A stretch of DNA of 64,000 bases from Bacteroidales bacterium (GTDB lineage: Bacteria > Bacteroidota > Bacteroidia > Bacteroidales > UBA1715), in the NCBI GenBank assembly GCA_045615765.1, contig JAZLFM010000028.1, positions 7,728 to 71,727 of the forward strand, written 5' to 3'. The translations under genes and the position numbers were made by a program. Shown here piece by piece: positions 7,430 through 24,160 of the stretch. Position 1 is the first letter of the stretch. The number at the start of each line of letters is the position of its first letter. The notes under the pieces were generated by a model, which was given only the letters and a program-made list of their open reading frames with translations, made no database searches and was not told the origin of the DNA.

Positions 7430-8359
7430 ATGAACAAAACGGTACACACACTTGACTTTGAGAAAATCCTACGCATCCTAAAGGATACCGAAGACAAATA
7501 TGTATTTGAGAAGGTAAATCTTATCCCTAAAGAAGACGACCTACTTGAAAAATTACAGAAGTACGTCAACTACGGACAAGTAAACCGTAAAGCTGTTTTA
7601 GGTATAGACATATACAAATATAGTTCATACGAAGAATTTGCACAGACACTAGTCCCTTGTATGTTTAAATTATTGTTTAGGGAAACTATTGATATGTGCT
7701 TTAAAAACCATGCGTTTTTATTCCAGAAATACACAAAAGTTGAGTTTGAAGAAAACTTCATCAGTACCGGTGACGGTGGTTATGTGATTTTTGACAACCC
7801 ATTACATGCACTTTTATTTGCTTGTAATTTTTCCATAGTTCTTCGTACCTATAACTCATTCCACTTATATCCAAAATTACGAAAAATTGTTGGTGGAGCC
7901 AGCGTTCGCTATGCCATCACCTACGATAAAATATACTATTTCGACAAGAGTCACTATGGTCGTGCAATCATTAACAATGCCCGTATTTTAAGCAAAGACT
8001 CTTTAAACCGATGCATTATCGACCAAAACGTATATGATTGGTTTACCTTGAACATCGATGGTATGGAAAATCTGCAATTGATTACCATAGATCAAATAGC
8101 AAACATATATGAATTCCAAGGTAGTTACGATCCACAAGTACTTGACGAACACGAAGATGCTATATTCGGCAGAACCATGTCGAGAGAATCCGGAATCATT
8201 AACTCCGATGTACTGAAAATTGGTGAAATTCACTCAAAAGAAGCCAATATTAGCGTGTACAACATTCACTTACAAATCGTAAGCAAATGGGAACGAAGCG
8301 ATACCGACCGAATGATAACAGTTAGTTTGGGCAATCTGAACACAACATCGCTAACATAA
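7430..8359 (+). CDS. Class III nucleotidyl-cyclase-like protein
   Basis: VLGIDIYKYS and STGDG resemble the two metal-binding Asp motifs of adenylate/guanylate cyclases; YGRAIINNARI resembles the G-x-x-IN-x-x-R helix. Confidence 0.6.
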   Translation: MNKTVHTLDFEKILRILKDTEDKYVFEKVNLIPKEDDLLEKLQKYVNYGQVNRKAVLGIDIYKYSSYEEFAQTLVPCMFKLLFRETIDMCFKNHAFLFQKYTKVEFEENFISTGDGGYVIFDNPLHALLFACNFSIVLRTYNSFHLYPKLRKIVGGASVRYAITYDKIYYFDKSHYGRAIINNARILSKDSLNRCIIDQNVYDWFTLNIDGMENLQLITIDQIANIYEFQGSYDPQVLDEHEDAIFGRTMSRESGIINSDVLKIGEIHSKEANISVYNIHLQIVSKWERSDTDRMITVSLGNLNTTSLT

Positions 8360-8384
8360 TTCGGTAAATTCCTTTTTCTATAAA

Positions 8385-8412
8385 AAAGCGTGAACCTTAC
8401 GGAACACGCTTT
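8385..8412. terminator. Bidirectional intrinsic terminator between convergent genes
   Basis: AAAGCGTG-aacc-ttac-ggaa-CACGCTTT inverted repeat. Confidence 0.7.
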
Positions 8413-8434
8413 ATTCGTTTAATATATATCCTTG

Positions 8435-8683
8435 TTAATATATCTTTTCGTATTCACATTTCAATTTTAGTTCATAGCAAAATTTCAAAAAATCATCAAT
8501 TTTTGTATCATCATAAAAACAATCTATTCCTGAAGTCTGAGCTGTTCTTGCCAAATTTCCATATTGTTCATTGTCTAAAACATTAAACACAGCCTGCCCC
8601 AAACGATAGTATTTTCTATTGGGATCATCTTCGACTAAAGCAAGCACTTGTTCCTTAAATTCTTCAAAACCTTCTTTATCCAT
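8435..8683 (-). CDS. Small hypothetical protein, phage-like
   Basis: 82 aa ORF at the end of the operon; RLGQAVFN...DCFYDD motif recalls small proteins of Bacteroidota phages (from memory, unverified). Confidence 0.7.
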   Translation of the reverse strand: MDKEGFEEFKEQVLALVEDDPNRKYYRLGQAVFNVLDNEQYGNLARTAQTSGIDCFYDDTKIDDFLKFCYELKLKCEYEKIY

Positions 8684-8692
8684 AATCTAATA

Positions 8693-9637
8693 TTATAACC
8701 AACCTTCCCAATTTAAAACAGTTTGATTTTCGTCCATAAAAGGACGAGCTCCATGTTTTTTAAGCAATGAAATAACTTCATCCTTTCTTCCCTGCCAGTC
8801 TGTATTATCATTCAGTTCCACGACATGTAACACGGTTGAATGTATTTGTGAATATATTTCTCCTTCGGCGGAATCGCACAAACCACAATTGTAAGCCGGA
8901 TTTGCTCCACGTTCCAACATTAAAATAACCAAGTCAGGATTGCAAGATATACATGCACTTTCCAACGGAGTTTGTCCATCAAATCCAAACAAATCAATAT
9001 CGGCTCCAAGAGACAAAAGATAATCTACGGTTTCTTCAACCAATCGTAGATTCTTATCCATTTCTTCTTTCGACATGTCACAATTGTAATAGGCGCGATC
9101 TACGCATTTTGCCAAAGCCGTATTTCCGTCTTCACCTATGGCATTTACATCTATGTTTCCACTTTCCATAAGATTTTTTACTTGTGAAAATGTCCAATCA
9201 ACACGATCTAACAAATCAATCAACGGAGTATTTCCACCCAAGTGCAAATACCTGCCATGTATCAAAGCCTGAATTTTTGTTGAAACTGCGACAAAATTAT
9301 CTCGTATGTCTTCCCAAGAATATACATGTTCTTCCTCGGTGACCTTTTGTAACAAACGCCACATTTCTTCAGTAATCTGATCATAATCATTGTGATATCG
9401 AAGCTGTCGAAATTGTGGTTCGTTTATCCAATAATGAGAGAATTTATCGCGTCCCATCAAGACATATACCTTTTTCAGAATACTCTTAGCATACGAACTA
9501 TTATCCTTTGATAGATTATTGTTTTTACACAAAATGATCGGTGCATAGGAATAGTTTGCATCTACCATAATTCTACGATGATATAAAGCGAATTCTTCTC
9601 TCGTATAAAGTTCTTCTATGTTTTTTATGTGTTTCAT
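8693..9637 (-). CDS. Ankyrin-repeat protein
   Basis: GGNTPL, DGNTAL...LLSLGADID, DGQTPL...LERGANP, LLKKHGA repeats; 4-bp overlap with the upstream gene. Confidence 0.85.
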   Translation of the reverse strand: MKHIKNIEELYTREEFALYHRRIMVDANYSYAPIILCKNNNLSKDNSSYAKSILKKVYVLMGRDKFSHYWINEPQFRQLRYHNDYDQITEEMWRLLQKVTEEEHVYSWEDIRDNFVAVSTKIQALIHGRYLHLGGNTPLIDLLDRVDWTFSQVKNLMESGNIDVNAIGEDGNTALAKCVDRAYYNCDMSKEEMDKNLRLVEETVDYLLSLGADIDLFGFDGQTPLESACISCNPDLVILMLERGANPAYNCGLCDSAEGEIYSQIHSTVLHVVELNDNTDWQGRKDEVISLLKKHGARPFMDENQTVLNWEGWL

Positions 9638-10164
9638 AGTTTATTTATAAATCGTTTCTTAAACAATGGTTCACTTTCTATTTCCTCAATTCCATTATTG
9701 AAACGCCAACGATGAGGAAATAAACATATTGCATCTATATCTAATGTCAATGCAGCTTTCAACCCACTTTCGTCTGCGCCAGATTGACCACCACTTCGGA
9801 TTTCGGTAATTTCGACCTTGAAATCGTTTATTAGTTTACGTAATACATACAAAATGACCTCATCGCAATATTGTTGGGTTAGTTTATGTTCGTGCAAACG
9901 GGCCAAGCCATTTCCAGCAATATTAAACGAATTATATTGTCGCATTTCCGGACCATATTTTTCAAGAAAATCATTCACTTTATCTATTTCCTTTATGTTG
10001 ATTGCATAATACCCTTTTTTATGCTTACGGGCGCTTTCTTCTGTCAGTCGTTCCCCTGAAGTTGTAAAATCTACTGCAAACGCAAGTGTTACGTCTGCTA
10101 ATTTTGCATTCTCCTTCGTTCTATGCGCATACGATGCATGATCGTCTTCTATAAACTGTATCAT
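9634..10164 (-). CDS. SLOG-superfamily protein (putative molybdenum-carrier/DprA-like)
   Basis: RT-x-x-NA...ADVTLAFA, FNIAGNG and IRSGGQSGADESGL motifs. Confidence 0.8.
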   Translation of the reverse strand: MIQFIEDDHASYAHRTKENAKLADVTLAFAVDFTTSGERLTEESARKHKKGYYAINIKEIDKVNDFLEKYGPEMRQYNSFNIAGNGLARLHEHKLTQQYCDEVILYVLRKLINDFKVEITEIRSGGQSGADESGLKAALTLDIDAICLFPHRWRFNNGIEEIESEPLFKKRFINKL

Positions 10165-10182
10165 TTCCTTATTCTTGTTTCA

Positions 10183-10217
10183 CAAAAATAATTTACAACT
10201 ATGCGAAATCACCGCAC
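10183..10217 (-). promoter_or_regulatory. Promoter of the SLOG operon: 20-bp palindrome-cored motif, 7-bp spacer, -7 box
   Basis: Minus strand GTGCGGTGATTTCGCATAGT-N7-TATTTTTG; identical 20-mer with identical spacing at 14612-14646. Confidence 0.75.
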
Positions 10218-10239
10218 TTTTAATTTTTTTAGAAAATAG

Positions 10240-11043
10240 CTATAAATTTATTTCCGATTGAATGTTAAACCGTTCGGGTTGCAATAGCAATCCGTATCGT
10301 AACGGTAAACATGCGTGATCAAAAATTATATGCATTACATAACAAATATTTTGTCCTTTCAATGCAGCATGTCTAAACGATTTAATATTCCAATTCTGTT
10401 CGTCTAAATCTTCGGGGAAAAAATCAGTACACAAAATTTTCAATTGTTCATTCATGTTATTACAATATTCACCACCAATTGTTTTTTCCTCATCAATACT
10501 GTAATTATAGTAGATATAGGTATTAACAGTACATTCTTTATAATACTTTCTGCCACTTGCAAGCAATTTATTGACGTCGCACTTTATTGCCTCTTGTTGT
10601 TTGCGTGCTTTTGCCATTAGTTTTGTTAACACTTCATTGAGTTTTAACAATTTTGAAATATTTTCTTCTTTCCTGTCAAATTCATTAGCCTCCCTTATTT
10701 TTTTACATTTTTCCTCGATTTGTTTTTGAAAGTCAGACTTATAAGACGGTGTTCTTTGTAAATCTTCTACTGTTAATTTTGCATAGTCTATACAGGTTTG
10801 TATTTGCATATCAGCTATGTCTATAGTGTTCTGATATTGTTTCAATTCAAACATTGCATCTGTGAGATATTTAACCATATTGTCTGTAAGACTATCTAAC
10901 ATACCGTCTTCTTCTGCACCTGCTATAGTATTAACAATGGACAAATCATTCTCAATATACGTTGGTAGATTTCTATCATCAGGTATTTCAATATCAATAC
11001 AGCCACATATCCTTAACGAGGATAAATTCTTCTTTAAGCTCAT
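10240..11043 (-). CDS. Hypothetical protein with shared MxLKK leader (array gene 5)
   Basis: MSLKKNLSSLRICGCIDIE aligns with MNLKKIFDSKRICDGLDID of 13635..14489; central coiled coil. Confidence 0.8.
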   Translation of the reverse strand: MSLKKNLSSLRICGCIDIEIPDDRNLPTYIENDLSIVNTIAGAEEDGMLDSLTDNMVKYLTDAMFELKQYQNTIDIADMQIQTCIDYAKLTVEDLQRTPSYKSDFQKQIEEKCKKIREANEFDRKEENISKLLKLNEVLTKLMAKARKQQEAIKCDVNKLLASGRKYYKECTVNTYIYYNYSIDEEKTIGGEYCNNMNEQLKILCTDFFPEDLDEQNWNIKSFRHAALKGQNICYVMHIIFDHACLPLRYGLLLQPERFNIQSEINL

Positions 11044-11402
11044 AATCGTGTTTTTTTATATTTACAAATACAATGAGAATATTTATCTATTGATTTTAAA
11101 AAATTAACCATAGCCTCAACTTTTTCTATCCTTCTATTATAGCCTATGGGATAACTATTTAGAGATTCCTTATACTCATTTATACATTCATCTACTGCCT
11201 TACTTATAATTACCATATCATTTCAATAAAATTTCTCTAAACTCATCTATTGTATAATACCCTAAACCAATAGTCAAACCAATCTTGCTTTGTCCAATTC
11301 TTTGATATTTCTACCAATTCGTCATCAGACAATGTGTGATACGATTGTAATAATAGTTTTCTTTCTTCATTAGTTTGAAACTTAATGCCAACTTTCTCAC
11401 AT
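11040..11402 (-). pseudogene. Decayed small gene pair (antitoxin-like remnant plus 58-aa truncated ParE/RelE-like ORF at 11040..11216)
   Basis: Hand translation: KFQTNEERKLLLQSYHTLSDDELVEISKNWTKQDWFDYW, then a frameshift to GLGYYTIDEFREILLK-stop; 1 nt later MVIISKAVDECINEYKESL...CICKYKKTRL-stop. The TA assignment is inference. Confidence 0.45.
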
Positions 11403-11461
11403 TTATATATTACTTAATCGCCTTTATTCTATTTATTTAGTAATTATTGTGGAATAAAGAA

Positions 11462-12736
11462 TTACACTGCATATAAATATTCTATGTGTGGTTCTATGTT
11501 GTAATTTTCAATTATTTCTCTTGAAAAATCGTCTATCCAATCAAACATATCACTCTCATTTTTTGTTTTATAAAAAACTTTTTCGTTTTGAAACATAAAT
11601 CCATCTTTTCTTTCTTCAACAAAAGACTCTTTGTTCATTTTGTCAATATAAGTCTCATTACCCCTCCATATATATATGCTTGCATCAACTATTTCATCTC
11701 TGTTATTCCATAATAATTCTATTTCCGAAAATAAAAAATCATCCTTTAGACTATCTGTAATAAACCCTCCCTCATCTTTTGAACATACAATCGAAAACAA
11801 TGTACGCTCTTCCGTGCCAATTTCACCATATTTAACAGATAAAATATCATCAAGGTCTATAAGATTGCAATTACCTAACAAAATATCTTCTCTTATTTTT
11901 GTTAGTAAATTTTTATTTAAAGAATCATTTATTTCATTTAATGAGCATTTACTTTCTTTTTTATACATGTTTCTTATGCGTAAAGCCCTATCTATTTCCT
12001 CCCTTGAAGTTTTTTGACTTTTTTTAGTCCATCCATTAAAAAATACAACAATGTTTACTTTGTCAAACATAAATGCTATCCTATAGATATTAGAACTTTG
12101 CTTTGCTCTTAATTCATAAACATCCTCTATAAGTTTATCTACTTTCTGCTCATTTAATATTTTTTCTGTTTTAAGGTATTCTATTTTTTTGTCAATAGCT
12201 TTTTGTGCCTTTGGATACAACGAGTTATAATAATCAAAGAAATATTCTTTATAAGCAAAGACTTTTCTATAATACGTAACAGATTTTTTATCCATGTTGT
12301 CTGTGTTACTGTTCTGCAACTCTTCCAAACAATCATTCAATTCTTCTTCTGTTGGTGGAAAATCAATAATCTTTATATGTTCCAAAAAGCACCCTATATT
12401 GATTCTGCTTTCATTGAATATTAAATCAACGTCACTACAATTAGACATTGAAAATAAATATTTGTAATCTTCTAATAATTCTCCATCATTAGACAAATAA
12501 ATATTTATGCAACCTGACAATATCTCTCTCTTTACAAAATCATCAATATCATCTTCTATGTTAAAGCACAACAAGTTTTTTAATGTATTACAAATCTTTT
12601 TTTTATTCAAATCAAAGTGTTCTTTGTGTACACATAAATCAACTATATGCTTCATAATTTGTTCCAATGAAACATAACATTGCTGCTCAAAAATATTTTT
12701 GTCATCATAATCATCAACAATCTTCTTTAAATTCAC
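11462..12736 (-). CDS. Mosaic protein with shared leader containing a HigB/Gp49 (RelE-fold) toxin domain and a HigA-N-like peptide (array gene 4)
   Basis: GTG start MNLKKIVDD; aa ~156-261 contain YELRAK-x-x-SNIYRI...FFNGWTKKSQKT-x-REEI-x-RA; aa ~292-314 read LDDILSVKYGEIGTEER. Confidence 0.8.
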   Translation of the reverse strand: MNLKKIVDDYDDKNIFEQQCYVSLEQIMKHIVDLCVHKEHFDLNKKKICNTLKNLLCFNIEDDIDDFVKREILSGCINIYLSNDGELLEDYKYLFSMSNCSDVDLIFNESRINIGCFLEHIKIIDFPPTEEELNDCLEELQNSNTDNMDKKSVTYYRKVFAYKEYFFDYYNSLYPKAQKAIDKKIEYLKTEKILNEQKVDKLIEDVYELRAKQSSNIYRIAFMFDKVNIVVFFNGWTKKSQKTSREEIDRALRIRNMYKKESKCSLNEINDSLNKNLLTKIREDILLGNCNLIDLDDILSVKYGEIGTEERTLFSIVCSKDEGGFITDSLKDDFLFSEIELLWNNRDEIVDASIYIWRGNETYIDKMNKESFVEERKDGFMFQNEKVFYKTKNESDMFDWIDDFSREIIENYNIEPHIEYLYAV

Positions 12737-12785
12737 ATCTTATCTTTTTGTTTTTTAATCCTATAATATTCTACACCTCAAAAAA

Positions 12786-13154
12786 CTAATCATGAATCTG
12801 ATTCCAAACGTTCAGAGCATTCTTTTTGTTTGTTATCGAATCTTCAATGAAACATTTTGAATCAAGCCATTTGTTTACATTGTTGCACATATAGTCAAAA
12901 ATGTTTTTCTCTGCTCCTTTAGTTTTAACTTCAAGTATTGAACCATCCTCTATGAGAAAAGAAACATTCCATCCATCCCTTATTATATGGAAATGAGGAG
13001 GATTATGGTCATTGCTCCACATCTTAACTTCCCAAGTGCTGTAAGGAAATACACCTTTGCTGTTTTCTTCCTTGTTGATTCTTGCCATATCAACTATCGG
13101 AATAAAACCATTCAAAGTAGTAGTAGTACCTTCAAAAATCTTCTTTAGGCTCAT
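12786..13154 (-). CDS. DUF4160-family protein with shared leader (array gene 3)
   Basis: Start moved to MSLKKIFEG; WSNDHNPPHFHI motif and W-x-x-IH end typical of DUF4160. Confidence 0.8.
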   Translation of the reverse strand: MSLKKIFEGTTTTLNGFIPIVDMARINKEENSKGVFPYSTWEVKMWSNDHNPPHFHIIRDGWNVSFLIEDGSILEVKTKGAEKNIFDYMCNNVNKWLDSKCFIEDSITNKKNALNVWNQIHD

Positions 13155-13237
13155 AATCGTATTTTTTATTTTCAACTTTCTATATATAGAAATACTATAG
13201 TTCTAAATAATTAGGCATGGGCAAATCAATTATATGT

Positions 13238-13612
13238 TTAATCTATTCGTTTTATGTTATTGAACAATTCTTCCTCATATATTTCATCATTGTAGTACTT
13301 AATCAGCACATCGTAGTTCTTGATTATCCATTGTTTTATTCTGTTAATTTCTTTTGCTCCAAGTATAGTCGTGTCATAATCTACCAATACTTGTGGATTT
13401 TTTTTGTCAATAGATATAGGTATTAAAAATTCCTTTTGGAACCTATCTGATGTATTGTTCTGAAACTTTATGCGAGGTTGATTATGTTTACCAGTATTAT
13501 TGCCGAAGTTCGGCGAAACCAATATCAAACATGTTAATCCACTACACCCCTTTGTGATACGAGCCATATCACATATTGGCTCCACACTATCAAAAATCTT
13601 CTTTAGGTTCAT
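13238..13612 (-). CDS. DUF4160-like protein with shared leader (array gene 2)
   Basis: MNLKKIFDSVEPICDMARI; H-x-x-PRIK motif and IKQWIIKNYDVLIKYY helix, similar to the DUF4160 architecture. Confidence 0.65.
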   Translation of the reverse strand: MNLKKIFDSVEPICDMARITKGCSGLTCLILVSPNFGNNTGKHNQPRIKFQNNTSDRFQKEFLIPISIDKKNPQVLVDYDTTILGAKEINRIKQWIIKNYDVLIKYYNDEIYEEELFNNIKRID

Positions 13613-13634
13613 AATCGTATTTCTTATTTGAGAA

Positions 13635-14489
13635 TCAATGTAATTCTGTAAAAAGTGTGAAAAATATTATCTCTTTCGGTGTAAATGTTTCAAGAAGTGC
13701 TATTGATGAATCAGACAGTGTTTTTTGTGTTGTTATAGTGTCATCTACAATCAAGATTCTTTTATTATTTATTTTTCCTGTTATTTCATTGCTTATTGCG
13801 ACATCATTAGGCACCTCCATAGATACTGGCATATATTTACATATTCTTGAATCTTCAAAAAACTTATATGAAAACTTATCATTATTATTTTTTCTCATAT
13901 CATGAAATGCTATCCTTATTTTTTCTTTGATTTCATTTCGTTCTCTTTCAGAGAAATTTTCAAGTAAACTATCTTCATCTAACAAATAATCTTGTACATA
14001 AGATGCTTTATGTTTCATAAAAAATCCCTTTATTAAATCCCCCCCTTTAATTCTTTTTATACACGTTGCAAGATATTTGTTTAATTTACTTGAAGATGGT
14101 ATATAAATTATAGTGTCAAAAGGTTCATTAAATTCTTTTGTTACAGCAACAAATCTTCTCAATAATGCCAAAATATCATACTCAGGATTTGCAAATCTCC
14201 ATTTAGAAGTTGAACTTTTTGTTTTTTTTAACTCTTCTTCTGTTTTGTCATAATTTTTTAGAGCATAAATCAATGGATTACCATCACTCCCATCTGATGA
14301 CATTTTTCTTTCAAAAACAGAAACAACCTTGCATCCATTCATTGTGCTATAAAAAGGTTTAGGATTATATAAATCATTTGTATTAACATTATTCTGATGA
14401 TTGGGATTAAATGAAACTACAAAATTAATATCATCAATATCAAGACCATCACATATCCGCTTACTATCAAAAATCTTCTTTAAGTTCAT
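13635..14489 (-). CDS. Type I phosphoribosyltransferase-family protein with shared leader (array gene 1)
   Basis: MNLKKIFDS leader; DGNPLIYALK, IYIPSSS and PRPP-binding RILIVDDTITT motif. Confidence 0.8.
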   Translation of the reverse strand: MNLKKIFDSKRICDGLDIDDINFVVSFNPNHQNNVNTNDLYNPKPFYSTMNGCKVVSVFERKMSSDGSDGNPLIYALKNYDKTEEELKKTKSSTSKWRFANPEYDILALLRRFVAVTKEFNEPFDTIIYIPSSSKLNKYLATCIKRIKGGDLIKGFFMKHKASYVQDYLLDEDSLLENFSERERNEIKEKIRIAFHDMRKNNNDKFSYKFFEDSRICKYMPVSMEVPNDVAISNEITGKINNKRILIVDDTITTQKTLSDSSIALLETFTPKEIIFFTLFTELH

Positions 14490-14611
14490 AATTTTAGTTA
14501 AATATTATTTTTTATTAAACTTTCTTATATATACAAATTAGAATTGATGTTTTTAACAACAGTAAATTCCATCCCGAATTGAAAGTTGAGCATAATCAGT
14601 AAGCTTTGCTA

Positions 14612-14646
14612 CAAAGGTATCTCTTGACTATGCGAAATCACCGCAC
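14612..14646 (-). promoter_or_regulatory. Promoter of the leader array: same 20-bp motif, 7-bp spacer, -7 box
   Basis: Minus strand GTGCGGTGATTTCGCATAGT-N7-TACCTTTG. Confidence 0.75.
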
Positions 14647-14678
14647 ACATAAAAAAATTAAGTTTGTAATTCTATTTT

Positions 14679-14705
14679 TATGGACGGAGCAAAGCCCCGT
14701 CCACA
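14679..14705. repeat. GC-rich hairpin (REP-like or transcript-end element) after the RtcB operon
   Basis: TGGACGGAGC-AAA-GCCCCGTCCA inverted repeat; no U-tract on the minus strand. Confidence 0.55.
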
Positions 14706-14710
14706 GTAGT

Positions 14711-14887
14711 TTAACAATATCGCTTTTTGTGTTTGCCACCACGGGCATGTTTCTTTTTGTCACCAACCCAATAATAAAGGGAAATCTGCTTCCCATATTT
14801 TGCAAGCTCTTCTTCACGCGATTTTTTGCGTGCAGCTTTTACCGCTGCAATTGTCGGGTCTATTATTTTTTTCTTCTTATTTTTCAT
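14711..14887 (-). CDS. Small highly basic protein (58 aa), candidate ArfA-like ribosome-rescue factor
   Basis: MKNKKKK...KAARKKSREEELAKYGKQIS...KKKHARGGKHKK; starts 1 nt after the RtcB stop. Confidence 0.65.
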   Translation of the reverse strand: MKNKKKKIIDPTIAAVKAARKKSREEELAKYGKQISLYYWVGDKKKHARGGKHKKRYC

Positions 14888-14888
14888 A

Positions 14889-15953
14889 TTATTTCCTCCA
14901 AAATCGTACATCTTCAGCCGCCTTATAATTATACACTGGTCGTATGATTTTAACAACCTCAACAGTGGCTTGTATTCTTTCAACAATTGCATCCATGGGT
15001 TTATAGGCAAAAGGAGACTCATCGAGCGTGCGTTCATTTACAGTCGTGGAATAAATCCCCTGCATTGCCTGTTCGTATTCCTCTACCGTAATAATTTTTC
15101 GTGCCTCGCCTCTCGACAATAATCGCCCTGCACCATGAGGAGCGGAACAATTCCAGTCTTCGTTTCCTTTACCCACACACAAAAGACTTCCATCTCGCAT
15201 ATTCATTGGAATTATAAGTTGCTCACCTATTTGAGCAGAAATCGCTCCCTTACGAACAATTCTACGACGAGTATCTATATAATTATGCAATGTTTCAAAA
15301 TGCTCAAAATCTTTTAGGTGTTTCCCCTTCCAATATTTCGAAATAATAATTTCTGCAATAGTTTCACGGTTTAAACGGGCAAATTCACCACAGATTTTCA
15401 CATCGTTTATGTAGTTCAACATATCGCGACCTTCAATATAACCTTCGTCAGTCAGGCTTGCATAAAAAGCACAAACTTGCTTACCTAAGTTTCGAGAACC
15501 TGTATGAATCACGAGATAACAATTTTGCTCATCATCTTGATCAATCTCAATAAAATGATTTCCGCCGCCTAACGTTCCGATGCTTCGCAAAATATACTTG
15601 CTATTATCAATTGCAGAGAAACATTTCAGTTTTTTTAGATTGAAATCTGCAATTTTTTCGTCTCTAATTTTTAGACCTGACGGAATTTTCAATTGCACAA
15701 TCTTATCTAACTTCGGAAATTCAATCTCTACTTGGCCGAGTTTCACCACTTCCATTCCACAGCAGATATCGTTTCCAACTGCCTGAGGATCAATAATATC
15801 GGTATATGTAGCCGTAAAACCAACCACACCGCCAACTCCGGCATGGCAATCTGGCATTATGCGAATTTTCTCCTCATTATAAGCCAGAGAATTTGCAATC
15901 ATATCTATTTGTGCACGACAATCTATATTGTCTGCAAATATTTGTATATCCAT
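14889..15953 (-). CDS. rtcB: RtcB-family RNA ligase (copy 2 in transcription order)
   Basis: MPDCHAG, DICCG, GGGNHF, IHTGSR, HNY, RKGA, PHGAGR, DESP-x-AYK; start placed at MDIQIF. Confidence 0.93.
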   Translation of the reverse strand: MDIQIFADNIDCRAQIDMIANSLAYNEEKIRIMPDCHAGVGGVVGFTATYTDIIDPQAVGNDICCGMEVVKLGQVEIEFPKLDKIVQLKIPSGLKIRDEKIADFNLKKLKCFSAIDNSKYILRSIGTLGGGNHFIEIDQDDEQNCYLVIHTGSRNLGKQVCAFYASLTDEGYIEGRDMLNYINDVKICGEFARLNRETIAEIIISKYWKGKHLKDFEHFETLHNYIDTRRRIVRKGAISAQIGEQLIIPMNMRDGSLLCVGKGNEDWNCSAPHGAGRLLSRGEARKIITVEEYEQAMQGIYSTTVNERTLDESPFAYKPMDAIVERIQATVEVVKIIRPVYNYKAAEDVRFWRK

Positions 15954-16172
15954 ATCTTTGTTTTTCGTAATAACAATGTGTACATCATCATTACAATTCG
16001 TAAAAATTTGATTATTTAAGACGGACTTACCGCCTTCTTGTGGATAAAATAATACCACTACCACGCATTCTACATACGTAGTTCACAGAAAAAATAGAAT
16101 GATTGCTTATAAAGTTTTTCTCATTGCGAGACAAAAATAATAAAATTTTTGAAATACAAAAACGGTAAAATA

Positions 16173-16203
16173 TTGTAGAGACAGAATTATCACATCTCTA
16201 CAA
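16173..16203. repeat. REP-like palindrome between the two rtcB genes
   Basis: TTGTAGAGA-N13-TCTCTACAA with GTAG/CTAC ends. Confidence 0.5.
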
Positions 16204-16220
16204 CACTCACACACAAATAT

Positions 16221-17396
16221 TTACAATCCTTTTACTACTGCCATAGGTGAAAGTTCTGTAATAATCTTCACCAAGTCGGTCTGATTTGCCATAACCTCTT
16301 CTATGTTTTTGTAGGCGCCGGCAGCTTCCTCCAGATCTTTCCTATTGCGTATGGCATGAACTATTCCCTGCTCTTCCAAACGTTTTATCTCATCGTCCAA
16401 CGACAACGTATTGACAGCAGCAGTACGGCTTAATAATCTTCCTGCACCATGTGATGAACTTTCAAAACTATCGGGATGCCCCAATCCTTCCACTATATAT
16501 GATTTTGTACCCTGTGAACCTGGTATAATACCTATTGTACCTAACGATGCACGAACTGCCCCTTTACGATGAACGATTACATCTTCATCGAAATGATGTT
16601 CCCATGCTGCATAATTGTGTGCAATATTTATCATAGGTTCAAAAATCACATGCGGAAAATTATTCTGAAAAATTTCCTGAATCCGTTCCATCATCAATTG
16701 TCTATTCGCCAAAGCGAACTCAACACAATAGTTCATCTCATTCCAATAATCGTGGAACTCCCGCGAATATTTCGGAAGAAAAGCCAATTTACTATCTAAA
16801 TTTATAGCAGAGTGCCACATTTTATTGAGATTTTGCGCTTTTTCATCGTAATAATCACACACTTTCTTTCCTAAATTCCGACTACCACTATGCAACATTA
16901 TCCACACAAAGCCATCGTTATCTTTTTGTATTTCAATAAAATGGTTACCCCCACCAAGTGTTCCCAATTGTTTTAATGCTGACGTATATTGACGTTTTAC
17001 AACCGTCATAGAATCAATATCAAAATCTTTAGGCATACGATTTTCATCTTGTGCAGTTTTATGGTGTTCCATACCAAGTGGAATACGCTTACGTATATCT
17101 CTTAAAATCCCTTTTCTTAAAATATCACCCGTCATTTCTTCCACACGGATATTTGTCTTTACGGCACACATTCCACAACCGATATCGACCCCAACAGCAT
17201 TGGGAACAACAACATCTTTTGTTGCCAATACGCCGCCAATCGGCATTCCTTTACCACCATGAGCATCTGGCATAAGAGCAAAATGATGAAACATAAATGG
17301 TAATGAACAAATATTTACAACCTCTTGCCATGCATGGCCATCAAGTGTTTTCGCCCACATTTTTACCGGCACATCGTTAATTAAAAGATTTTCCAT
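16221..17396 (-). CDS. rtcB: RtcB-family RNA ligase (copy 1 in transcription order)
   Basis: MPDAHGG, GVDIGCG, GGGNHF, LHSGSR, HNY, HRKGA, SHGAGR, AYK; true start MENLL at 17396 because the track extension reads through a tRNA. Confidence 0.95.
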   Translation of the reverse strand: MENLLINDVPVKMWAKTLDGHAWQEVVNICSLPFMFHHFALMPDAHGGKGMPIGGVLATKDVVVPNAVGVDIGCGMCAVKTNIRVEEMTGDILRKGILRDIRKRIPLGMEHHKTAQDENRMPKDFDIDSMTVVKRQYTSALKQLGTLGGGNHFIEIQKDNDGFVWIMLHSGSRNLGKKVCDYYDEKAQNLNKMWHSAINLDSKLAFLPKYSREFHDYWNEMNYCVEFALANRQLMMERIQEIFQNNFPHVIFEPMINIAHNYAAWEHHFDEDVIVHRKGAVRASLGTIGIIPGSQGTKSYIVEGLGHPDSFESSSHGAGRLLSRTAAVNTLSLDDEIKRLEEQGIVHAIRNRKDLEEAAGAYKNIEEVMANQTDLVKIITELSPMAVVKGL

Positions 17397-17413
17397 AACA
17401 AACACTATTTTTG

Positions 17414-17487
17414 TACAGCGTGCGGGAGTCGAACCCGCGATATCCAGGATGAAAACCTGACGTCCTTGACCACTAGACGAACGCTGC
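17414..17487 (-). tRNA. tRNA-Glu(TTC)
   Basis: GCAGCGT acceptor/ACGCTGT, D-arm GTCTAGTGGTCAAGGAC, anticodon loop TT-TTC-AT, T-arm GCGGG-TTCGACT-CCCGC; CCA not encoded. Confidence 0.9.
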
Positions 17488-17492
17488 ATTTG

Positions 17493-17564
17493 TAGTCGGT
17501 AGAGGAATCGAACCTCTATCCTAAAATCCGTAGTTTTATGTTCTATCCATTGAACTAACCGACC
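17493..17564 (-). tRNA. tRNA-Arg(ACG)
   Basis: GGTCGGT/ACCGACT acceptor, GTTC-AATGGATA-GAAC D-arm, TAAAA-CTACGGA-TTTTA anticodon arm, AGAGG-TTCGATT-CCTCT T-arm; CCA not encoded. Confidence 0.88.
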
Positions 17565-17581
17565 TTTGAACTTTCGTTGAG

Positions 17582-17620
17582 CAAAGATTCAAAACAAAGT
17601 ACGCACTCTTTGTGCGCAGT
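17582..17620 (-). promoter_or_regulatory. Promoter of the tRNA-rtcB operon with putative WYL operator
   Basis: Minus strand TGCGCA-N7-TGCGTA, then 10 nt, then a degenerate -7 box AATCTTTG; lies between the operon and the divergent WYL gene. Confidence 0.6.
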
Positions 17621-17710
17621 ATTAAAAATTTTTCATATTTTTGAAAAATTAAATTACAACTCACTGAATATCAATAAGAAAAATATCATTAATCACTAAT
17701 CACTGCCTCC

Positions 17711-18727
17711 ATGCCTATAAACAGAAACGCTCTCATTCGATATAAAACAATAGACAATTGCCTACAAAATCGTTTTAGAAAATGGACTTTAGAAGATTTG
17801 ATTGAAGCCTGTTCTGACGCACTCTATGAATACGAAGGAATAGACAAGGGTATCAGCAAACGCCAAGTTCAGAAAGACATACAAATAATGCGTAGCGAAA
17901 AATTAGGATACAATGCACCTATTATAGTTGTAGAAAATAAATACTATACTTATGAAGATCCAAATTTCAGCATAACAAATACACCGTTGAACGAACAGGA
18001 CATACAACAAATGAATAATGCCGTTTCCGTACTAAAGCAACTAAGTGGATTTTCTCAATTTGGTGATATTGAAGAAATTGTAAACCGACTGGACGACCAT
18101 ATTACAGCAATGCAACACAAGAAAAAAGCAGTCATATTTTTTGAAAAAAACGACAAGCTAAAAGGACTGAATTATATTGACACTGCCTACAGAGCAATAA
18201 CCGAAAAGCATCCATTGCGAATAGAATATCAATCTTTTAAGGCGACACATGCTTCTACATTCCTGTTCTCGCCGTATGTACTTAAAGAATACCGAAACCG
18301 GTGGTTTATTTTTGGTGAGCGCGAAGGAAAACGAGAAATCCTGAATCTTGCTCTTGACCGAATCAAAACCATGGAAATTGCACCCGATGCAGTTTATTGT
18401 GAAAACATACATTTCGACGGCGAAACATATTTTAGCAACATGATAGGTGTTACCAAACTACCGCGACAGAAATCAGAAGCAATTCGTTTTTATGCCACAC
18501 CCGAACAAACACCATACATAAAAACGAAACCGATACATAAGTCCCAACAAACAGTACAAGACAACGAAGACGGTTCTGCTATTTTCGAAATAACGGTTAT
18601 AATCAACTTAGAATTAAAACGAGAATTTCTGGGCTTTGGCGAAGGTATAACTATTCTTTCACCGCAATATTTTGTTGAAGATATTAGGAAAAATCTTACG
18701 AAAGCGTTGGAGAAGTATAACAGGTAA
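17711..18727 (+). CDS. HTH-WYL-WCX transcriptional regulator
   Basis: MPINRNALIRYKTIDNCL N-terminal wHTH, SPYVLKEYRNRWFIFG, LALDRI, TKPIHKSQ motifs. Confidence 0.92.
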   Translation: MPINRNALIRYKTIDNCLQNRFRKWTLEDLIEACSDALYEYEGIDKGISKRQVQKDIQIMRSEKLGYNAPIIVVENKYYTYEDPNFSITNTPLNEQDIQQMNNAVSVLKQLSGFSQFGDIEEIVNRLDDHITAMQHKKKAVIFFEKNDKLKGLNYIDTAYRAITEKHPLRIEYQSFKATHASTFLFSPYVLKEYRNRWFIFGEREGKREILNLALDRIKTMEIAPDAVYCENIHFDGETYFSNMIGVTKLPRQKSEAIRFYATPEQTPYIKTKPIHKSQQTVQDNEDGSAIFEITVIINLELKREFLGFGEGITILSPQYFVEDIRKNLTKALEKYNR

Positions 18728-18811: not shown

Positions 18812-20212
18812 CTAATCAAATAAATCGTTAAGCGTAACTACTGAATCAAAAGCACCTGAATATTCGTTGTATTGAAGGCCAAAAGTTGTAACTAACACCG
18901 ATTGAATAGCGCAACGTTTTGGAATTTTCGGTCCTAATAAATTCTTTCGTTGCTGAATTTTTGCGTGATACGATTTTGTACAGACATATTCTTCGCTATA
19001 GAATTTCATCTCACATAGATTCACTATGTTATCCTTTCGCTGAATCAACAAATCTATTTGAGAACCTTCATGGTCATCATCGCCACGCAACGACCAAGCT
19101 GATTGATTCGACGATACTGCTAAAATATTAAGTGCTTTTTTTATCTGCGAAATATGACGCAAACAAACTTCTTCAAAAGCATATCCACGCCAACTAATTA
19201 TTGATTGATTTTCGATATTATGCAACCAAAAATTTTGCTCCAAATCCTTTTTCCCTTGTACATATTTCATGTAAAACAAACAAAAAGGGTCTACCAACTT
19301 ATAGTGAATCTGATGTTTTCCTTTACCAAATGGTATATACTGTTGAATAAAATCGCTTGCAATCAATGCATTCAACATTTTTGAAAAATTTCCGCTTCCT
19401 TCAAGTTGAAGGTTATTCAAGATTTCTTGCCGTGTATAACCCGCTCGTCTCGTTCCCAAAAATTCAACAATACGTTTCATTTCTTCTGGATTCACGAAAA
19501 TCGAAGAAAACAAGCGATTGTATTCATCATGCAATTGAGCTTTTTCAGAAAAGAACAGTTGATTTATATTTTGGGCCAAACTCAAACCTGGCTTCATATA
19601 TCCAAGATAATATGGAATTCCACCTAAAATCATATTGCTTTGAACAATGTCGTAACGTGATATTTTCACATTCCGACTTTTGTAGAATTTTTCACATTCG
19701 GCAAGAGTAAACGGTTTCAGCTTCACTTCATAGGTAGTCCTTCCATATAAACCTCCATGATTGTTCACCAAATTATCTAACATCCATGAATTAGCACTTC
19801 CACAAACAACCAAGAGCATATCTTTACGATGGCAAGCCCATGTTTTCCAAAACCCTTCAAAAGCAGTCATAAATCCAGAACGAGGAGTATCAAGCCACGG
19901 CAATTCATCTAAAAAAACCACTTGTTTTTTATGTCCACTTCGACTTTCGAGCAATTGCTCTAACATAAAAAAAGCTTCGAGCCACGATGTTGGGCAATGG
20001 CTTTTTTTCATACCATGCAATTGCAACGAATAATAGAAATGTTTCAGTTGTTGTTTGAGATTATTTTTATTGTTTTCTTTATCGATAGGAGACAAACCAG
20101 CATGACGAAATGTTATTTTATCACGAAACACTTCATCAATCAAATATGTTTTTCCAACACGACGACGCCCATACACAGCAACGAATTCTGCTTTCTTGCT
20201 GTTATACAACAT
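18812..20212 (-). CDS. AAA/archaeal-type ATPase with wHTH and C-terminal PD-(D/E)XK-like domain (DUF234-type)
   Basis: YGRRRVGKT, VFLDELPW, CGSA, QIDLLI...CEMKF; an upstream in-frame start at 20257 is interrupted by TGA. Confidence 0.88.
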   Translation of the reverse strand: MLYNSKKAEFVAVYGRRRVGKTYLIDEVFRDKITFRHAGLSPIDKENNKNNLKQQLKHFYYSLQLHGMKKSHCPTSWLEAFFMLEQLLESRSGHKKQVVFLDELPWLDTPRSGFMTAFEGFWKTWACHRKDMLLVVCGSANSWMLDNLVNNHGGLYGRTTYEVKLKPFTLAECEKFYKSRNVKISRYDIVQSNMILGGIPYYLGYMKPGLSLAQNINQLFFSEKAQLHDEYNRLFSSIFVNPEEMKRIVEFLGTRRAGYTRQEILNNLQLEGSGNFSKMLNALIASDFIQQYIPFGKGKHQIHYKLVDPFCLFYMKYVQGKKDLEQNFWLHNIENQSIISWRGYAFEEVCLRHISQIKKALNILAVSSNQSAWSLRGDDDHEGSQIDLLIQRKDNIVNLCEMKFYSEEYVCTKSYHAKIQQRKNLLGPKIPKRCAIQSVLVTTFGLQYNEYSGAFDSVVTLNDLFD

Positions 20213-20344
20213 TTTAAGTTCTTCTTTCTCCTTGTCTCAACCAACAATTTCGCACATAAAAACCTTCTTATAATTTTCCACAAATATATAAAAATATCAA
20301 TTTACGGAAAAATATAACACTATTTTATCATACAAAAACCATCG

Positions 20345-20393
20345 TATAAATTTCCGCAAACAATATAAAACCATCGTTTGCGGAAAAATATAA
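20345..20393. repeat. 49-bp internally palindromic direct repeat, copy 2 (a degenerate third copy lies at ~20272-20317)
   Basis: TATAAATTTCCGCAAACAATATAAAACCATCGTTTGCGGAAAAATATAA. Confidence 0.85.
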
Positions 20394-20446
20394 TGGTATT
20401 TTATTGAATTATAAAAATAAGGAAATATAGCATAACGACAATCCCA

Positions 20447-20676
20447 TACTTTTCTTTCTGCAGCGAAAGAAAAGTATGCAAAAGAACGCCGTCGACCCAC
20501 GCCTTCGCTAAAAAACGACTGCATTCCGCTAAAGGATTTGGAATGCCGCATGGTTAGATTTCCCAATGACATTGCCGGAGGCATCAAATCCTTTTTAACG
20601 CTTCATTCCGTCGTTTTTCTTAACACTCATTCGTGAAGTCGAGATCTTTCTTGACCTGCAGCAAGAAAGAACAAGA
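20447..20676. repeat. Structured non-coding element (MITE-like or ncRNA)
   Basis: Terminal hairpins TACTTTTCTTTC..GAAAGAAAAGTA and TCTTTCTTG..CAAGAAAGA enclose nested arms AAAAACGAC/GTCGTTTTT and AAAGGATTTG/CAAATCCTTT. Confidence 0.55.
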
Positions 20677-20780
20677 ACACACATCATAATTATAACGAAC
20701 AAATGTGTAATAAGGTATACAGCCAAGATGTATATCATTTCAAAAAATAAAAATTTGCGGTTTATTATCCGCTTGAATGA

Positions 20781-20812
20781 AAAAAAGGGAAAAGTCTCAA
20801 TGACTTTCCCCT
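20781..20812. terminator. Intrinsic terminator-like hairpin
   Basis: AAAAAAGGGAAAAGTC-TCAAT-GACTTTCCC. Confidence 0.55.
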
Positions 20813-21066
20813 AAAATGTGAACTATGATTTTTCTAAAGGTAAGACTATCATGAGCTTCTTCTTGACATCTTGCTCTTCGTTATATTTACTATATAGAAT
20901 CATATTTTTTATTTATTCTACAAATACAAACGAGATACTGGATTCTTTATTGTTCGTTTATTCTTATATGATTCATATTGGGAACAATAAACCCACAGAC
21001 AATCGGCATTTCTGCTGAAAATCAGTGGGTCTATTTGTTTAATTGTCAATCTTGATAAGAAGAAAA

Positions 21067-22257
21067 CTATTTGATTCCCATAAAATCACTAAGCAGTTTT
21101 ATTTTTGCTATGTAAGTATTAACAGACTCTTTGAGATTCGGTAGCTGCTTGAAAGGTATAGGTTTTGTATTATCAAAATGCAATACAATATAATAAGGTG
21201 CATGTGATGGTTCAAAACCATATTTTTCCAGAGTCTCTTTTGTCCAGATATTAAAATGTCCCTTAGATTTCAATTTGTATAATTGACAATCTTCTCCATT
21301 GGTATGAAGAAGAACGTATGACAATCTTTCGAAACCGGGTGTGATACAGAGTGAGCCTTTGGAATCACCTGCTCTCAAATAGCAGATACCGGTTTCTATC
21401 ATTTTTTCTTTTAACCCTTTGCGACAATGGTTAATCATGACAGTTAATTCTTCATGATTTTCAGACATTTTCTTCAGGATCTTTTCTGCTGTAAGAGGAT
21501 CTTCTATCTCTTGCTTGCGACGAATACCATACGCTAAATAGTCAATACTTTGATCAATACCAATAAATTTACGGTTCAAAAGTGATGCTGCTATTCCTGT
21601 AGTACAACTTCCTGCAAAAGGATCAAGAATGGTATCTCCTTCTTTTGTTGATGATAGAATTATTCTATAAAGCAACCTTAGTGGTTTTTGCGTAGGGTGT
21701 TTTCCACATTTCAATTCCCATGATGAAAGGAATGGAATTCGCCAAACATCCGACATTCGGTTTCCTCCATTTAGTTGCTGCATCAAATCACAGTTGAAGA
21801 AATGTTTTCCCTTCTCATTCTTACGAGCCCAAACTATATATTCAGTTGTAAAATTAAAATAGTTTCTTGAAAGAGTAGGTTTTGCATCAGACTTTTGCCA
21901 TACGATTATATTTAGAATCTTGTAGCCAAGTTCTACCATACAAGTTGCAACGGAGAAAATGTTATGATATGTTCCCGTAACAAATATGGTTCCGTCTTCT
22001 TTAAGTACATTTCGACATGCAGATAACCATTTCTTGTTAAAGGTATTTATATTTTCTTGGGAAGTAACTCTGTCCCATTTTCCTTTTTCAAACGATTTCC
22101 AAGTGCCGTTTATACAGGCTGATATATTTTTAGACAGGAAATAAGGAGGGTCTGCAAATATCATATCAACTTTTTTGTTGATAGAACTAACAAGTTCCAT
22201 CGTATCTCCGTGATACAATGTAAACTCTTCATTTCCTGTCTGATATAAAGGCGCCAT
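21067..22257 (-). CDS. Beta-class N6/N4 DNA methyltransferase (DpnA-like) with C-terminal extension
   Basis: FADPPY before HPTQKP and LDPFAGSCTTG. Confidence 0.9.
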   Translation of the reverse strand: MAPLYQTGNEEFTLYHGDTMELVSSINKKVDMIFADPPYFLSKNISACINGTWKSFEKGKWDRVTSQENINTFNKKWLSACRNVLKEDGTIFVTGTYHNIFSVATCMVELGYKILNIIVWQKSDAKPTLSRNYFNFTTEYIVWARKNEKGKHFFNCDLMQQLNGGNRMSDVWRIPFLSSWELKCGKHPTQKPLRLLYRIILSSTKEGDTILDPFAGSCTTGIAASLLNRKFIGIDQSIDYLAYGIRRKQEIEDPLTAEKILKKMSENHEELTVMINHCRKGLKEKMIETGICYLRAGDSKGSLCITPGFERLSYVLLHTNGEDCQLYKLKSKGHFNIWTKETLEKYGFEPSHAPYYIVLHFDNTKPIPFKQLPNLKESVNTYIAKIKLLSDFMGIK

Positions 22258-22258
22258 A

Positions 22259-23188
22259 TTATGCAAATTCAAGTGCTAGTTCAAGTTGTTGCTCGACATG
22301 TACTTCTTCTTGCTGAACTGCAGGTTCATGTAAATCAAAGTTGAAAACAAGGGCTTCTATCATTGCATGACGATTTTCTATATGACCACCACCATGATAG
22401 AAGTGCTCCTGCGTTTCAACATTAAAGTGATTCCAGAACTTATCCATCATTTCATTAGCTCTAAACTCATTATGATGCCAAGTAGAAAGAATGAAATGAG
22501 CAGGAGTTTGCTCTAATGCATGGAAAAGAGCTTCTTCATCTTCTTCTGTCCATCCGTTATAATAATCTACATATCGACCAAAATAAGGAGGATCACAATA
22601 TATCAAGTCTCCTGCTTGTGCATGGTTAATAGTTTCAATGAAATTTTGATTATGAAACTCCCAATGATTCTGATGAATTACTCTTTGTGCAGAAGCTATT
22701 TGATTACATATCTTTGTTACATAAGCTGGGGCAAAACGTTCTGGTTTTTTACAGAATGGTATATTCCACTGTCCTCGTCTGTTAAAACGCATCATGCCGT
22801 TAAAACCTGCACGAGATAGGAATATGAAGTCAAATGAACTATGCTCTGCATTAAACCTGTCTTTGACAGCTCGGTAATGAGCATAGCCTTCTTCATCTGC
22901 TACAGCTAACAATGCACCCTCATGCTCGAGATATTCGCGCATATTCTGAGGCGTTATTTCTCCATTAAGAACACCATTGTAAAAATTTATAATATGTGGA
23001 TTACTATCTGCAATGTATCTGTTACCGCCAACAGGTGCATTAAGACCAACAACACCTGTACCAAAGAAAGGCTCAATCCAGTTTGTGTTTTCAAGATCTA
23101 ACCCTGAACGGCGAATAACGTCATTTATCCAAGGTACAAGTTTGGTTTTAATACCTTGTGATTTAATTGGAGGTACTATTACGGGCAT
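22259..23188 (-). CDS. Dam/D12-family N6-adenine methyltransferase, M.EcoRV-like
   Basis: VPPIKSQGIKTKLVP N-terminus as in M.EcoRV, EPFFGTG, FNGMMRFN, YCDPPY. Confidence 0.92.
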   Translation of the reverse strand: MPVIVPPIKSQGIKTKLVPWINDVIRRSGLDLENTNWIEPFFGTGVVGLNAPVGGNRYIADSNPHIINFYNGVLNGEITPQNMREYLEHEGALLAVADEEGYAHYRAVKDRFNAEHSSFDFIFLSRAGFNGMMRFNRRGQWNIPFCKKPERFAPAYVTKICNQIASAQRVIHQNHWEFHNQNFIETINHAQAGDLIYCDPPYFGRYVDYYNGWTEEDEEALFHALEQTPAHFILSTWHHNEFRANEMMDKFWNHFNVETQEHFYHGGGHIENRHAMIEALVFNFDLHEPAVQQEEVHVEQQLELALEFA

Positions 23189-23206
23189 ATCAAATAGTTT
23201 TGTTAT

Positions 23207-24157: not shown

Positions 24158-24160
24158 AGT

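Follow-up and report, generated by a model that had tools for sequence, protein, structure and literature searches.

A start-codon module shared by toxin-like cassettes in a chromosomal defence island of a gut Bacteroidales-like bacterium

In the orphan toxin cassettes of rhs and cdiA loci and in the PeSL cassettes of T4-type phages, short conserved border stretches let homologous recombination swap the variable parts. The conserved stretch of rhs/cdi arrays lies before the C-terminal toxin domain, and the orphans have no start codon; PeSLs are non-coding units of a promoter and a stem-loop. Here we describe an array of five genes, g1 to g5, in a 64,000-nucleotide stretch of DNA from a Bacteroidales bacterium (assembly GCA_045615765.1, contig JAZLFM010000028.1, positions 7,728 to 71,727; hereafter the window), in which, unlike in rhs/cdi orphans and PeSLs, each cassette is a complete open reading frame (ORF) with its own conserved start. 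The array is horizontally acquired and lies inside the promoter of an operon for a circularly permuted YpsA (cpYpsA) and an ankyrin protein, within an RtcB/WYL defence island on the chromosome of this gut Bacteroidales-like bacterium. The conserved start, which we call the start module, is the joint of cassette exchange, and on balance we favour the reading that the locus is a hypervariable cassette array whose translated module serves the exchange of gene bodies.

The closest anatomical analogue of this array is the internal-protein (ip) locus of T-even phages. Both hold tandem, co-oriented, unrelated genes that have only a short N-terminal leader (about 10-20 residues) in common, and both combine conflict-related genes with a content that varies between strains; moreover, a relative of one cargo of the array, the putative phosphoribosyltransferase (PRTase) encoded by g1, lies beside portal and prohead protease genes in a huge phage. 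However, the array lies in a bacterial chromosome behind a host promoter with no phage genes around it, and its leader is unrelated to the capsid-targeting sequence (CTS) of T4 and ends in Asp instead of Glu. The array also resembles the rAID-1 loci of Bacteroidales, which two reports (10.1101/471110; PMC12247911) describe as low-GC, co-oriented short genes with conserved motifs between them, horizontally acquired and strain-variable in gut Bacteroidales. The rAID-1 definition calls for at least two co-oriented short genes with a GC content below 41%, and the array has five, of 122-424 codons and 27-34% GC. Unlike rAID-1, it has no adjacent XerD-like recombinase, the genes upstream of it being RtcB genes; its own genes look like toxins, with no immunity family among them (Pfam, PADLOC), and its repeat includes the start codon and first codons. 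Integron arrays likewise keep promoterless cassettes behind a resident promoter, with content differing between strains, whereas here there is neither IntI nor attC hairpins, and the repeat lies at the 5' end of the gene and is translated.

The genes of the array and the start modules that precede their bodies are as follows.

10240-14489, minus strand: the array, five co-oriented ORFs, g1-g5
13635-14489, minus strand: g1, 284 aa, start MNLKKIFDSKRICDG, putative divergent type-I PRTase
13238-13612, minus strand: g2, 124 aa, start MNLKKIFDSVEPICDMARI, DUF4160-like, leader residues 1-15
12786-13154, minus strand: g3, 122 aa from the ATG, MSLKKIFEG...IPIVDMARI, DUF4160, leader residues 1-22
11462-12736, minus strand: g4, 424 aa, GTG start, VNLKKIVDD, three-part fusion
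10240-11043, minus strand: g5, 267 aa, start MSLKKNLSSLRICGC, orphan
14467..14506, minus strand: start module of g1, copy of repeat family D1; contig breakpoints 14462, 14467, and 14495
13590..13629, minus strand: start module of g2, D1 copy 95% identical to the g3 module; breakpoints 13590 (runs X5 and X7), 13562 (X5), and 13615 (X1)
13132..13171, minus strand: start module of g3, the D1 reference copy; breakpoints 13132 and 13230
12714..12753, minus strand: start module of g4, D1 copy 68% identical to the reference
11021..11060, minus strand: start module of g5, D1 copy 78% identical to the reference

A preliminary description of this DNA, made by a model from the letters and ORFs, had reported five co-oriented, leader-sharing genes in AT-richer DNA. 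All five ORFs were found where it placed them, intact and without internal stops, in an insert (10218-14626, 4.4 kb) with a GC content of 28.2% as against 35.8% and 36.7% in the flanks and 36.0% in the genome. The fourth gene, whose start the description had given as MNLKKIVDD, begins with GTG.

All five products begin with M/V-[NS]-L-K-K in the ORF translations, and the likeness is one of DNA: a single repeat family, D1, comprises five 40-nt copies that are 68-100% identical to the reference, each covering about -15 to +25 around a start codon. In all 10 pairs of modules, the coding parts have 15-23 of their first 24 bases in common. Over the 18 bases upstream, agreement is good only among g2, g3, and g5 (12-16 positions), the remaining pairs agreeing at 7-10 positions. 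The closest pair, g2 and g3, has 16 of 18 upstream and 22 of 24 coding bases in common; in BLASTP between these two proteins the leaders alone aligned, and their alignment A3 showed an identity of 27%. The 16-nt pattern ATGARCYTAAAGAAGA, allowing at most one mismatch, matched five times in the window against 0.03 expected, namely in four array genes and at one unrelated site at 21995; the GTG-bearing copy of g4 was found only with a looser pattern. The module is in frame with the body in all five genes, and its coding extent reaches 14-22 codons in g1, g2, g3, and g5. Folding of the module regions was no better than that of shuffled sequences (z-scores -0.5 to +1.0), with no attC-like or operator hairpin, and an Rfam search of 8000-18000 at E<=0.1 returned two tRNAs only, with no riboswitch or other RNA element.

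Contigs from other samples place the exchange at this module. Parts of the stretch occur in twelve runs from six studies, with no run reaching more than 43% of its sampled words, and the contigs compared, which are short Logan metagenome contigs, come from four runs (X1, X2, X5, and X7) of four studies. Mis-assembly at the island edges had been named as a danger; both edges are bridged by contigs from two studies (lower edge, X1 rec1 at 9903-10456 and X2 rec9 at 9900-10806; upper edge, X1 rec8 at 14462-14900 and X2 rec16 at 14513-14900), so that this objection fails. X5 and X7 have the same loose end at 13590, where the leader continues in frame into a different body (read by eye), and X5 has another at 13562, with a further body after ...ICDMA. 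In X1, the promoter-proximal gene carries a g2-like leader, with a break at 14462, and X1 and X5 have a common loose end at 13230, just beyond the g2 stop codon. The gene order differs in X7, where one contig (rec27) shows g1 with a g3-like gene immediately upstream and a new body downstream, and a contig of X2 diverges at 10806 into a g5 N-terminus of the type found in the homologue P0047. The three fusion variants that the other samples add to the five of the window are also in frame (read by eye). Another contig of X7 (rec25) matches 9900-10217 and diverges exactly at 10217/10218, the edge of the insert; it has the 20-nt repeat described below and cpYpsA, no array, and other sequence upstream. 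The breakpoints are spread from -3 to +51 around the start codon, as homologous exchange within a conserved stretch would give, and not as expected of a fixed crossover.

The role of the module as the joint thus follows from the in-frame fusions to other bodies, the differing gene order, and the breakpoints at module edges in other samples, together with nearly identical modules on anciently diverged genes within the window. Each cassette opens with an A-rich translation-initiation stretch that shows no structure, followed by the start codon and eight initial codons; we propose that this module derives from the 5' end of the native PRTase gene. Exchange would proceed by homologous recombination between modules, a route suggested by the lack of a dedicated recombinase, and insertion within a promoter would put all cassettes under the promoter of the island. 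Because the module is common to all cassettes, every product bears the same short disordered N-terminal tail. It is possible, though we hold it only tentatively, that this tail also has a function of its own as a removable tag, by analogy with phage propeptides. In T4 internal proteins, the CTS is both the signal and the only conserved part (PMC3012670); the joint and tag readings can therefore both hold.

Several observations weigh against the reading as a hypervariable cassette array. No recombinase is linked to the array, and the mechanism of exchange is one that we infer. The evidence from other samples consists of short contigs, several joints have sides of only 30 letters, and none of the contigs listed spans 13590 from the g2 body into g1; the exact cassette order of the window may thus be one variant among others or a chimera of strains. 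In X7 rec25 the hairpin beside the array-less site is inverted, so that the site does not represent a clean empty one. Upstream of the start codon the module is kept only among g2, g3, and g5, and its coding part in all copies, a pattern that fits selection on the peptide too. Finally, the closest outside homologues of the PRTase already start with MNLK-x-L, and the DUF4160-like homologue P0049 starts with M-x-x-IKKFDE, so that a family trait may account for some of the similarity.

The leader is rare. A six-frame scan of the genome itself found it in the five array genes, and a sixth match to the search expression was an ordinary signal peptide. Among 23 other genomes of the family there was one true copy, a 136-aa g2-like gene starting MNLKKIFDSRKIADM in the sister species G013, where it sits in that species' RtcB/Ank/WYL island beside an AAA ATPase, a type-IIG-like methylase, and an Abi-like gene; a second match, in genome G001, contains an in-frame TAG. 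The protein-level pattern gave one match in 400 other sampled genomes of the order. The exact leader pattern occurred at 8, 9, and 30 loci of genome, viral, and metagenome collections, and 46 of these 47 diverge directly after codon 8 or are no ORF; only L021, titled as a Bacteroidales metagenome-assembled genome, continues with the extended leader. Its rarity in all of these searches indicates that the leader is not a general signal and is private to the genus within what was searched.

The leader is a separate, charged, non-hydrophobic N-terminal extension, in agreement with the preliminary description, which had denied it the character of a Sec or lipoprotein signal. We rejected such a signal on the same ground, the tail being charged and without a hydrophobic run, and elsewhere in the genome only one N-terminus resembles it, that of a true signal peptide. 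A double-glycine leader with a C39 exporter was rejected as well, as the genome has no PF03412 match. A prohead protease of the bacterium's own was looked for with PF03420 without a match in the genome, a weak negative given that control genomes gave none either.

Next, we considered the bodies of the array genes. In g1, residues 1-14 form the leader and the conserved core starts at G15-L-D-I-D. Its match to the PRTase family PF00156 (1.5e-5, 24.8 bits) is under the cut-off of 26.3, and PADLOC assigned it to ShosT at 5e-6. The AF2 model (pLDDT 83) is disordered over residues 1-14 (<50) and folded from residue 15-16; Foldseek gave weak PRTase and ShosT matches with the model (best E 3e-3 with a TM of about 0.3; ShosT E 0.04), and a profile of the g1 family matched HPRTs in the PDB at 3e-5, an alignment confined to the PRPP loop. 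The g1 protein thus looks weakly ShosT-like and g4 holds a Gp49/HigB domain, in which the array recalls the ShosTA and HigBA systems; unlike those, it has no ShosA or HigA partner among the proteins scanned (neither a DprA-like ShosA nor a HigA-like HTH protein lies beside it by Pfam and PADLOC), g1 bears an additional N-terminal beta domain, and the HigB part of g4 is embedded in a protein of 424 aa.

The g3 protein matches DUF4160 (PF13711) at 6e-8, with 33.2 bits against a cut-off of 23, and a sequence search of the PDB with it gave no match. No direct Pfam match was obtained for g2, which aligns with g3 in A3; g2 and g3 form one DUF4160-like family with P0049, P0050, and the G013 gene. The body types accordingly number four, not five: a divergent PRTase-like protein, the DUF4160-like type (twice), a HigB/Gp49 fusion, and an orphan. 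The residues DMARI, which had been taken for an ancestral start, are the conserved start of the DUF4160-like family core. The g3 leader contains an (ACT)4 run coding for TTTT at 13110-13121, and one contig each of X1 and X7 lacks three bases at 13116, so that the length of this leader differs between samples.

The g4 protein consists of an orphan N-terminal part of ~150 aa, a HigB/Gp49 toxin-like domain at ~155-262 (PF05973, 3.7e-15, 56.2 bits against a cut-off of 23.9), and a C-terminal domain common to P0059 and P0060. Nearly all of its 332 homologue matches fall on residues 155-262, the first 150 residues being without a relative, and PHROGs added a 'toxin' match at 1.8e-5. The first ~20 codons of g5 resemble the 5' end of g1 (repeat D7). 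Its sole homologue, P0047, is 84% identical over 77% of g5 and has a different N-terminus, and g5 had no match in Pfam, PADLOC, PHROG, or the ESM Atlas; the last three added little for g2, g3, and g5 overall. The 418-nt spacer between g4 and g5 holds one further reading frame, which may be a real gene or a cassette remnant.

11040..11216, minus strand: 58-aa ORF in the g4-g5 spacer, its stop codon overlapping the g5 start within the module; weak PHROG matches only, with an X1 joint (10541->11231) nearby

From these matches the cassettes are putative toxins or other conflict effectors. Pfam and PADLOC searches of the array proteins and their neighbours returned no recognisable antitoxin or immunity partner for any of the five.

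The edges of the insert lie at an exact 20-nt direct repeat, one copy on either side of the low-GC block, and each copy is followed by a -7 box whose TAnnTTTG form (TACCTTTG and TATTTTTG) we take to be that of a Bacteroidetes-type promoter.

14627..14646, minus strand: 20-mer copy 1, GTGCGGTGATTTCGCATAGT, upstream half of the array promoter at the upper insert edge, bridged by X1 rec8 and X2 rec16
14612..14619, minus strand: -7 box TACCTTTG, TAnnTTTG type, 7 nt past the 20-mer and contributed by the insert
10198..10217, minus strand: 20-mer copy 2, lower insert edge, upstream half of the cpYpsA-ankyrin promoter
10183-10190, minus strand: -7 box of cpYpsA, TATTTTTG, TAnnTTTG type, 7 nt past 20-mer copy 2
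14683..14703, minus strand: terminator-like hairpin behind the RtcB operon and immediately before the promoter of the array; G013 has a hairpin at the same position

With a 20-mer and a TAnnTTTG box at both edges, the array lies between two promoter halves, and the array and the downstream operon each keep a complete promoter. The host promoter that the preliminary description had placed before the array is thus of this Bacteroidetes type. The 20-mer has no copy in the genome at <=3 mismatches beyond the two in the window. A scan for sigma-70 promoters stayed at chance level (51 found against 49 expected), and its result was left unused. As a separate observation, the sequence GTGCGGTGATTTCGCAyAnT recurs ~7 nt before the TAnnTTTG boxes of several genes in this genus, including a sigma-factor-like gene of G013 (sites at 10198-10217 and 14627-14646 of the window, L029 15304-15323, and L031 7649-7668), and may serve as the operator of a regulator or as an extended -33 element.

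The window is chromosomal (ftsH, rsfS, folE, dtd, trpS, and rsgA are present). In minus-strand order, the conflict island comprises tRNA-Arg, tRNA-Glu, two RtcB genes, a gene for a 58-aa basic protein, the hairpin, the array, the circularly permuted YpsA (SLOG), and the ankyrin gene; beside it lie a divergent WYL-WCX regulator, a PDC-S27 ATPase, two EcoRV-like nucleases, and two methylases. Pfam searches of the neighbours found no phage structural gene or integrase near the array, as had been described before, and the 113-kb array contig (C28) has no PF00589 match, all four of the genome's matches lying on other contigs (C23, C51, and C53). In G013, orthologous RtcB, the basic protein, the hairpin, and a 16/20 version of the 20-mer directly precede the ankyrin gene, with no array. 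The foreign origin of the insert is indicated by its GC content of 28% against 36%, together with the finding of a g1-type PRTase and of cpYpsA each in only one of 24 family genomes; the other five PRTase matches are distant, with E at about 1e-11. Since cpYpsA is unique to this genome within the family, no clean empty site is obtainable from relatives.

Some further features of the island stood out in their own right. The candidate defence ATPase of the PDC-S27 type (2e-187) adjoins the tandem EcoRV-family nuclease pair and DNA methylases of the N6_N4 and D12 classes (18812-24958). Directly upstream of the long RtcB gene lie tRNA-Glu(TTC) and tRNA-Arg(ACG) (17413-17564, minus strand), and because the mechanical ORF at 16221-17489 overruns tRNA-Glu, RtcB probably begins at the internal MENLLIND; two tRNAs at the head of an RNA-ligase operon are possibly of interest. 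After the short RtcB gene comes the 58-aa, very basic protein MKNKKKKIIDPTIAAVKAARKK (14711-14887, minus strand), which has no family match, is kept in G013 (L029, about 13245-13515), and could be an accessory of the RtcB operon. G013 retains the last ~24 codons of the long RtcB directly after the WYL-WCX gene (L029 about 15345-15420, minus strand), a remnant that suggests that the island was rearranged there.

The best-surviving alternative to the joint as the main role of the tail is that the tail imitates a capsid-targeting or propeptide leader of T4-type huge phages, or has evolved from one, the toxins being loaded into proheads or unmasked by a cut after I-x-D; judged by analogy, we consider this unlikely as the main function. 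The T4 prohead protease cuts by the rule [LI]-x-E. Homologues of g1 number 46, of which we parsed 36, leaving out ten that fell outside the search expression. The nearest (54-69% identity) start with MNLK-x-L and have Asp before the invariant Gly, and most others have a helical extension of 20-45 residues that ends in Glu. Of the 36, 27 have E and 7 have D immediately before the invariant Gly (P1), 34 have I, L, V, or M at P3, and in 33-34 the extension before the G-I-D-I-D core ends in [ILVM]-x-[ED]. The leaders of the [IL]-x-[ED] kind that had been anticipated in phage homologues were thus found in this broader form, whereas a specific pattern for the Asp-type (MNLK...) PRTase motif had no match in IMG/VR. 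The disordered g1 leader ends exactly at the core, which also speaks for this reading.

The phage side of this alternative is real for g1. All nine matching phage records are of Prevotella phage Lak-B, with three to four PRTase copies each, and IMG/VR holds 12 g1-related loci on contigs of 26-448 kb. The suspected link to large phages therefore applies to the PRTase; g2, g3, and g5 had no phage match, and g4 matched one phage record via its HigB part only. In the phage record G420 (160 kb; CheckV estimate 44% complete), four of the 185 ORFs in the first 80 kb carry a common leader, MK..I[RK]L[TS]E..L..[IV]V[KR]E.V, on unrelated bodies. Three of these four genes, the PRTase included, lie no more than about 5 kb from a T4-type portal (7.5e-79) and an intein-bearing S77 prohead protease. 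The three most similar copies, taken with a stricter pattern, differ by synonymous changes, including Ser AGT/TCA, which indicates that the peptide is under selection in this phage; possibly, this leader is an undescribed head-targeting signal. The G420 leader cluster, in the form MK..IRLTE.DL..IVKE.V...L.E, maps to L072 2865-10393 and L087 8415-9161. S77 proteases were found in all three phage records searched; that of Lak-B1 (W01 497276-497593) matches with two in-frame TAG codons, consistent with TAG recoding in Lak phages. The giant phage SPN3US has N-terminal propeptides of 20 and 24 residues that are cut after A-x-E (PMC10052503), and prohead proteases are reported to activate CBASS (PMC12991175).

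Against the capsid or protease reading, the window leader shows no sequence similarity to that of the phage, and its last residue is Asp instead of Glu. The PRTase copies of Lak-B1 lie among replication and nucleotide-metabolism genes (topoisomerase, FolD, radical-SAM), at a distance of about 55-60 kb from the S77 gene. Copying, moreover, explains better than selection on the peptide why the modules are nearly identical in their DNA. A more elaborate form joins this idea to cassette exchange as a 'Trojan cargo' defence, in which the toxins of a rapidly shuffling set would each bear a tag that the host has evolved in imitation of the head-targeting or propeptide leader of huge gut phages of the T4 type (Lak- or Jug-like). 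An invading phage would take such toxins up into its proheads, or its S77 prohead protease would unmask them, and the DNA encoding the tag would double as a recombination joint for new toxin bodies. We regard this combination as doubtful, a little more so than the capsid or protease reading itself. The literature searched yielded no account of an array of this kind or of the leader in phages, which does not establish their absence from print, and term searches of Jug-phage and jumbo-phage papers found no mention.

It is improbable that the array is a neutral relic, that is, a captured AT-rich fragment whose 5' ends were duplicated by chance and whose module and genes are without function. Such a relic would agree with a leader confined to one genus in everything searched, with the orphan status of g5 and of the N-terminal part of g4, and with the lack of any RNA run among the runs listed for the stretch. 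The five intact ORFs do not fit it, nor does the complete promoter in front of the array, and all fusions, including the three variants from other samples, are in frame in an array that is present and diversifying in contigs of runs from four studies. An rAID-like or integron-like array, with the repeats as recombination sites and a recombinase acting in trans or lost, would share with this locus the short low-GC genes, the conserved inter-cassette motifs, the content that differs between samples, and the direct repeat bounding the insert, but is very improbable given the lack of PF00589 on the contig and of hairpin-forming attC-like sites, a translated repeat that covers the start codon, toxin-like content (PRTase, HigB, DUF4160) instead of SUKH- or Imm-type immunity genes, and breakpoints whose scatter fits homologous and not site-specific exchange.

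If the reading as a hypervariable cassette array is true, gut Bacteroidales possess a cassette system that needs no linked integrase, in which one translated start-codon module is at once expression signal, common tail, and recombination joint. The architecture of a phage internal-protein locus would here be resident, and evolving, in a bacterial defence island. The leader found beside the portal and prohead protease genes of huge gut phages is a testable candidate for a head-targeting signal in uncultivated megaphages. Should the tail of the cassettes prove to be directed at a protease or capsid, the array would broaden a recently reported notion, that of prohead proteases being sensed by bacteria.

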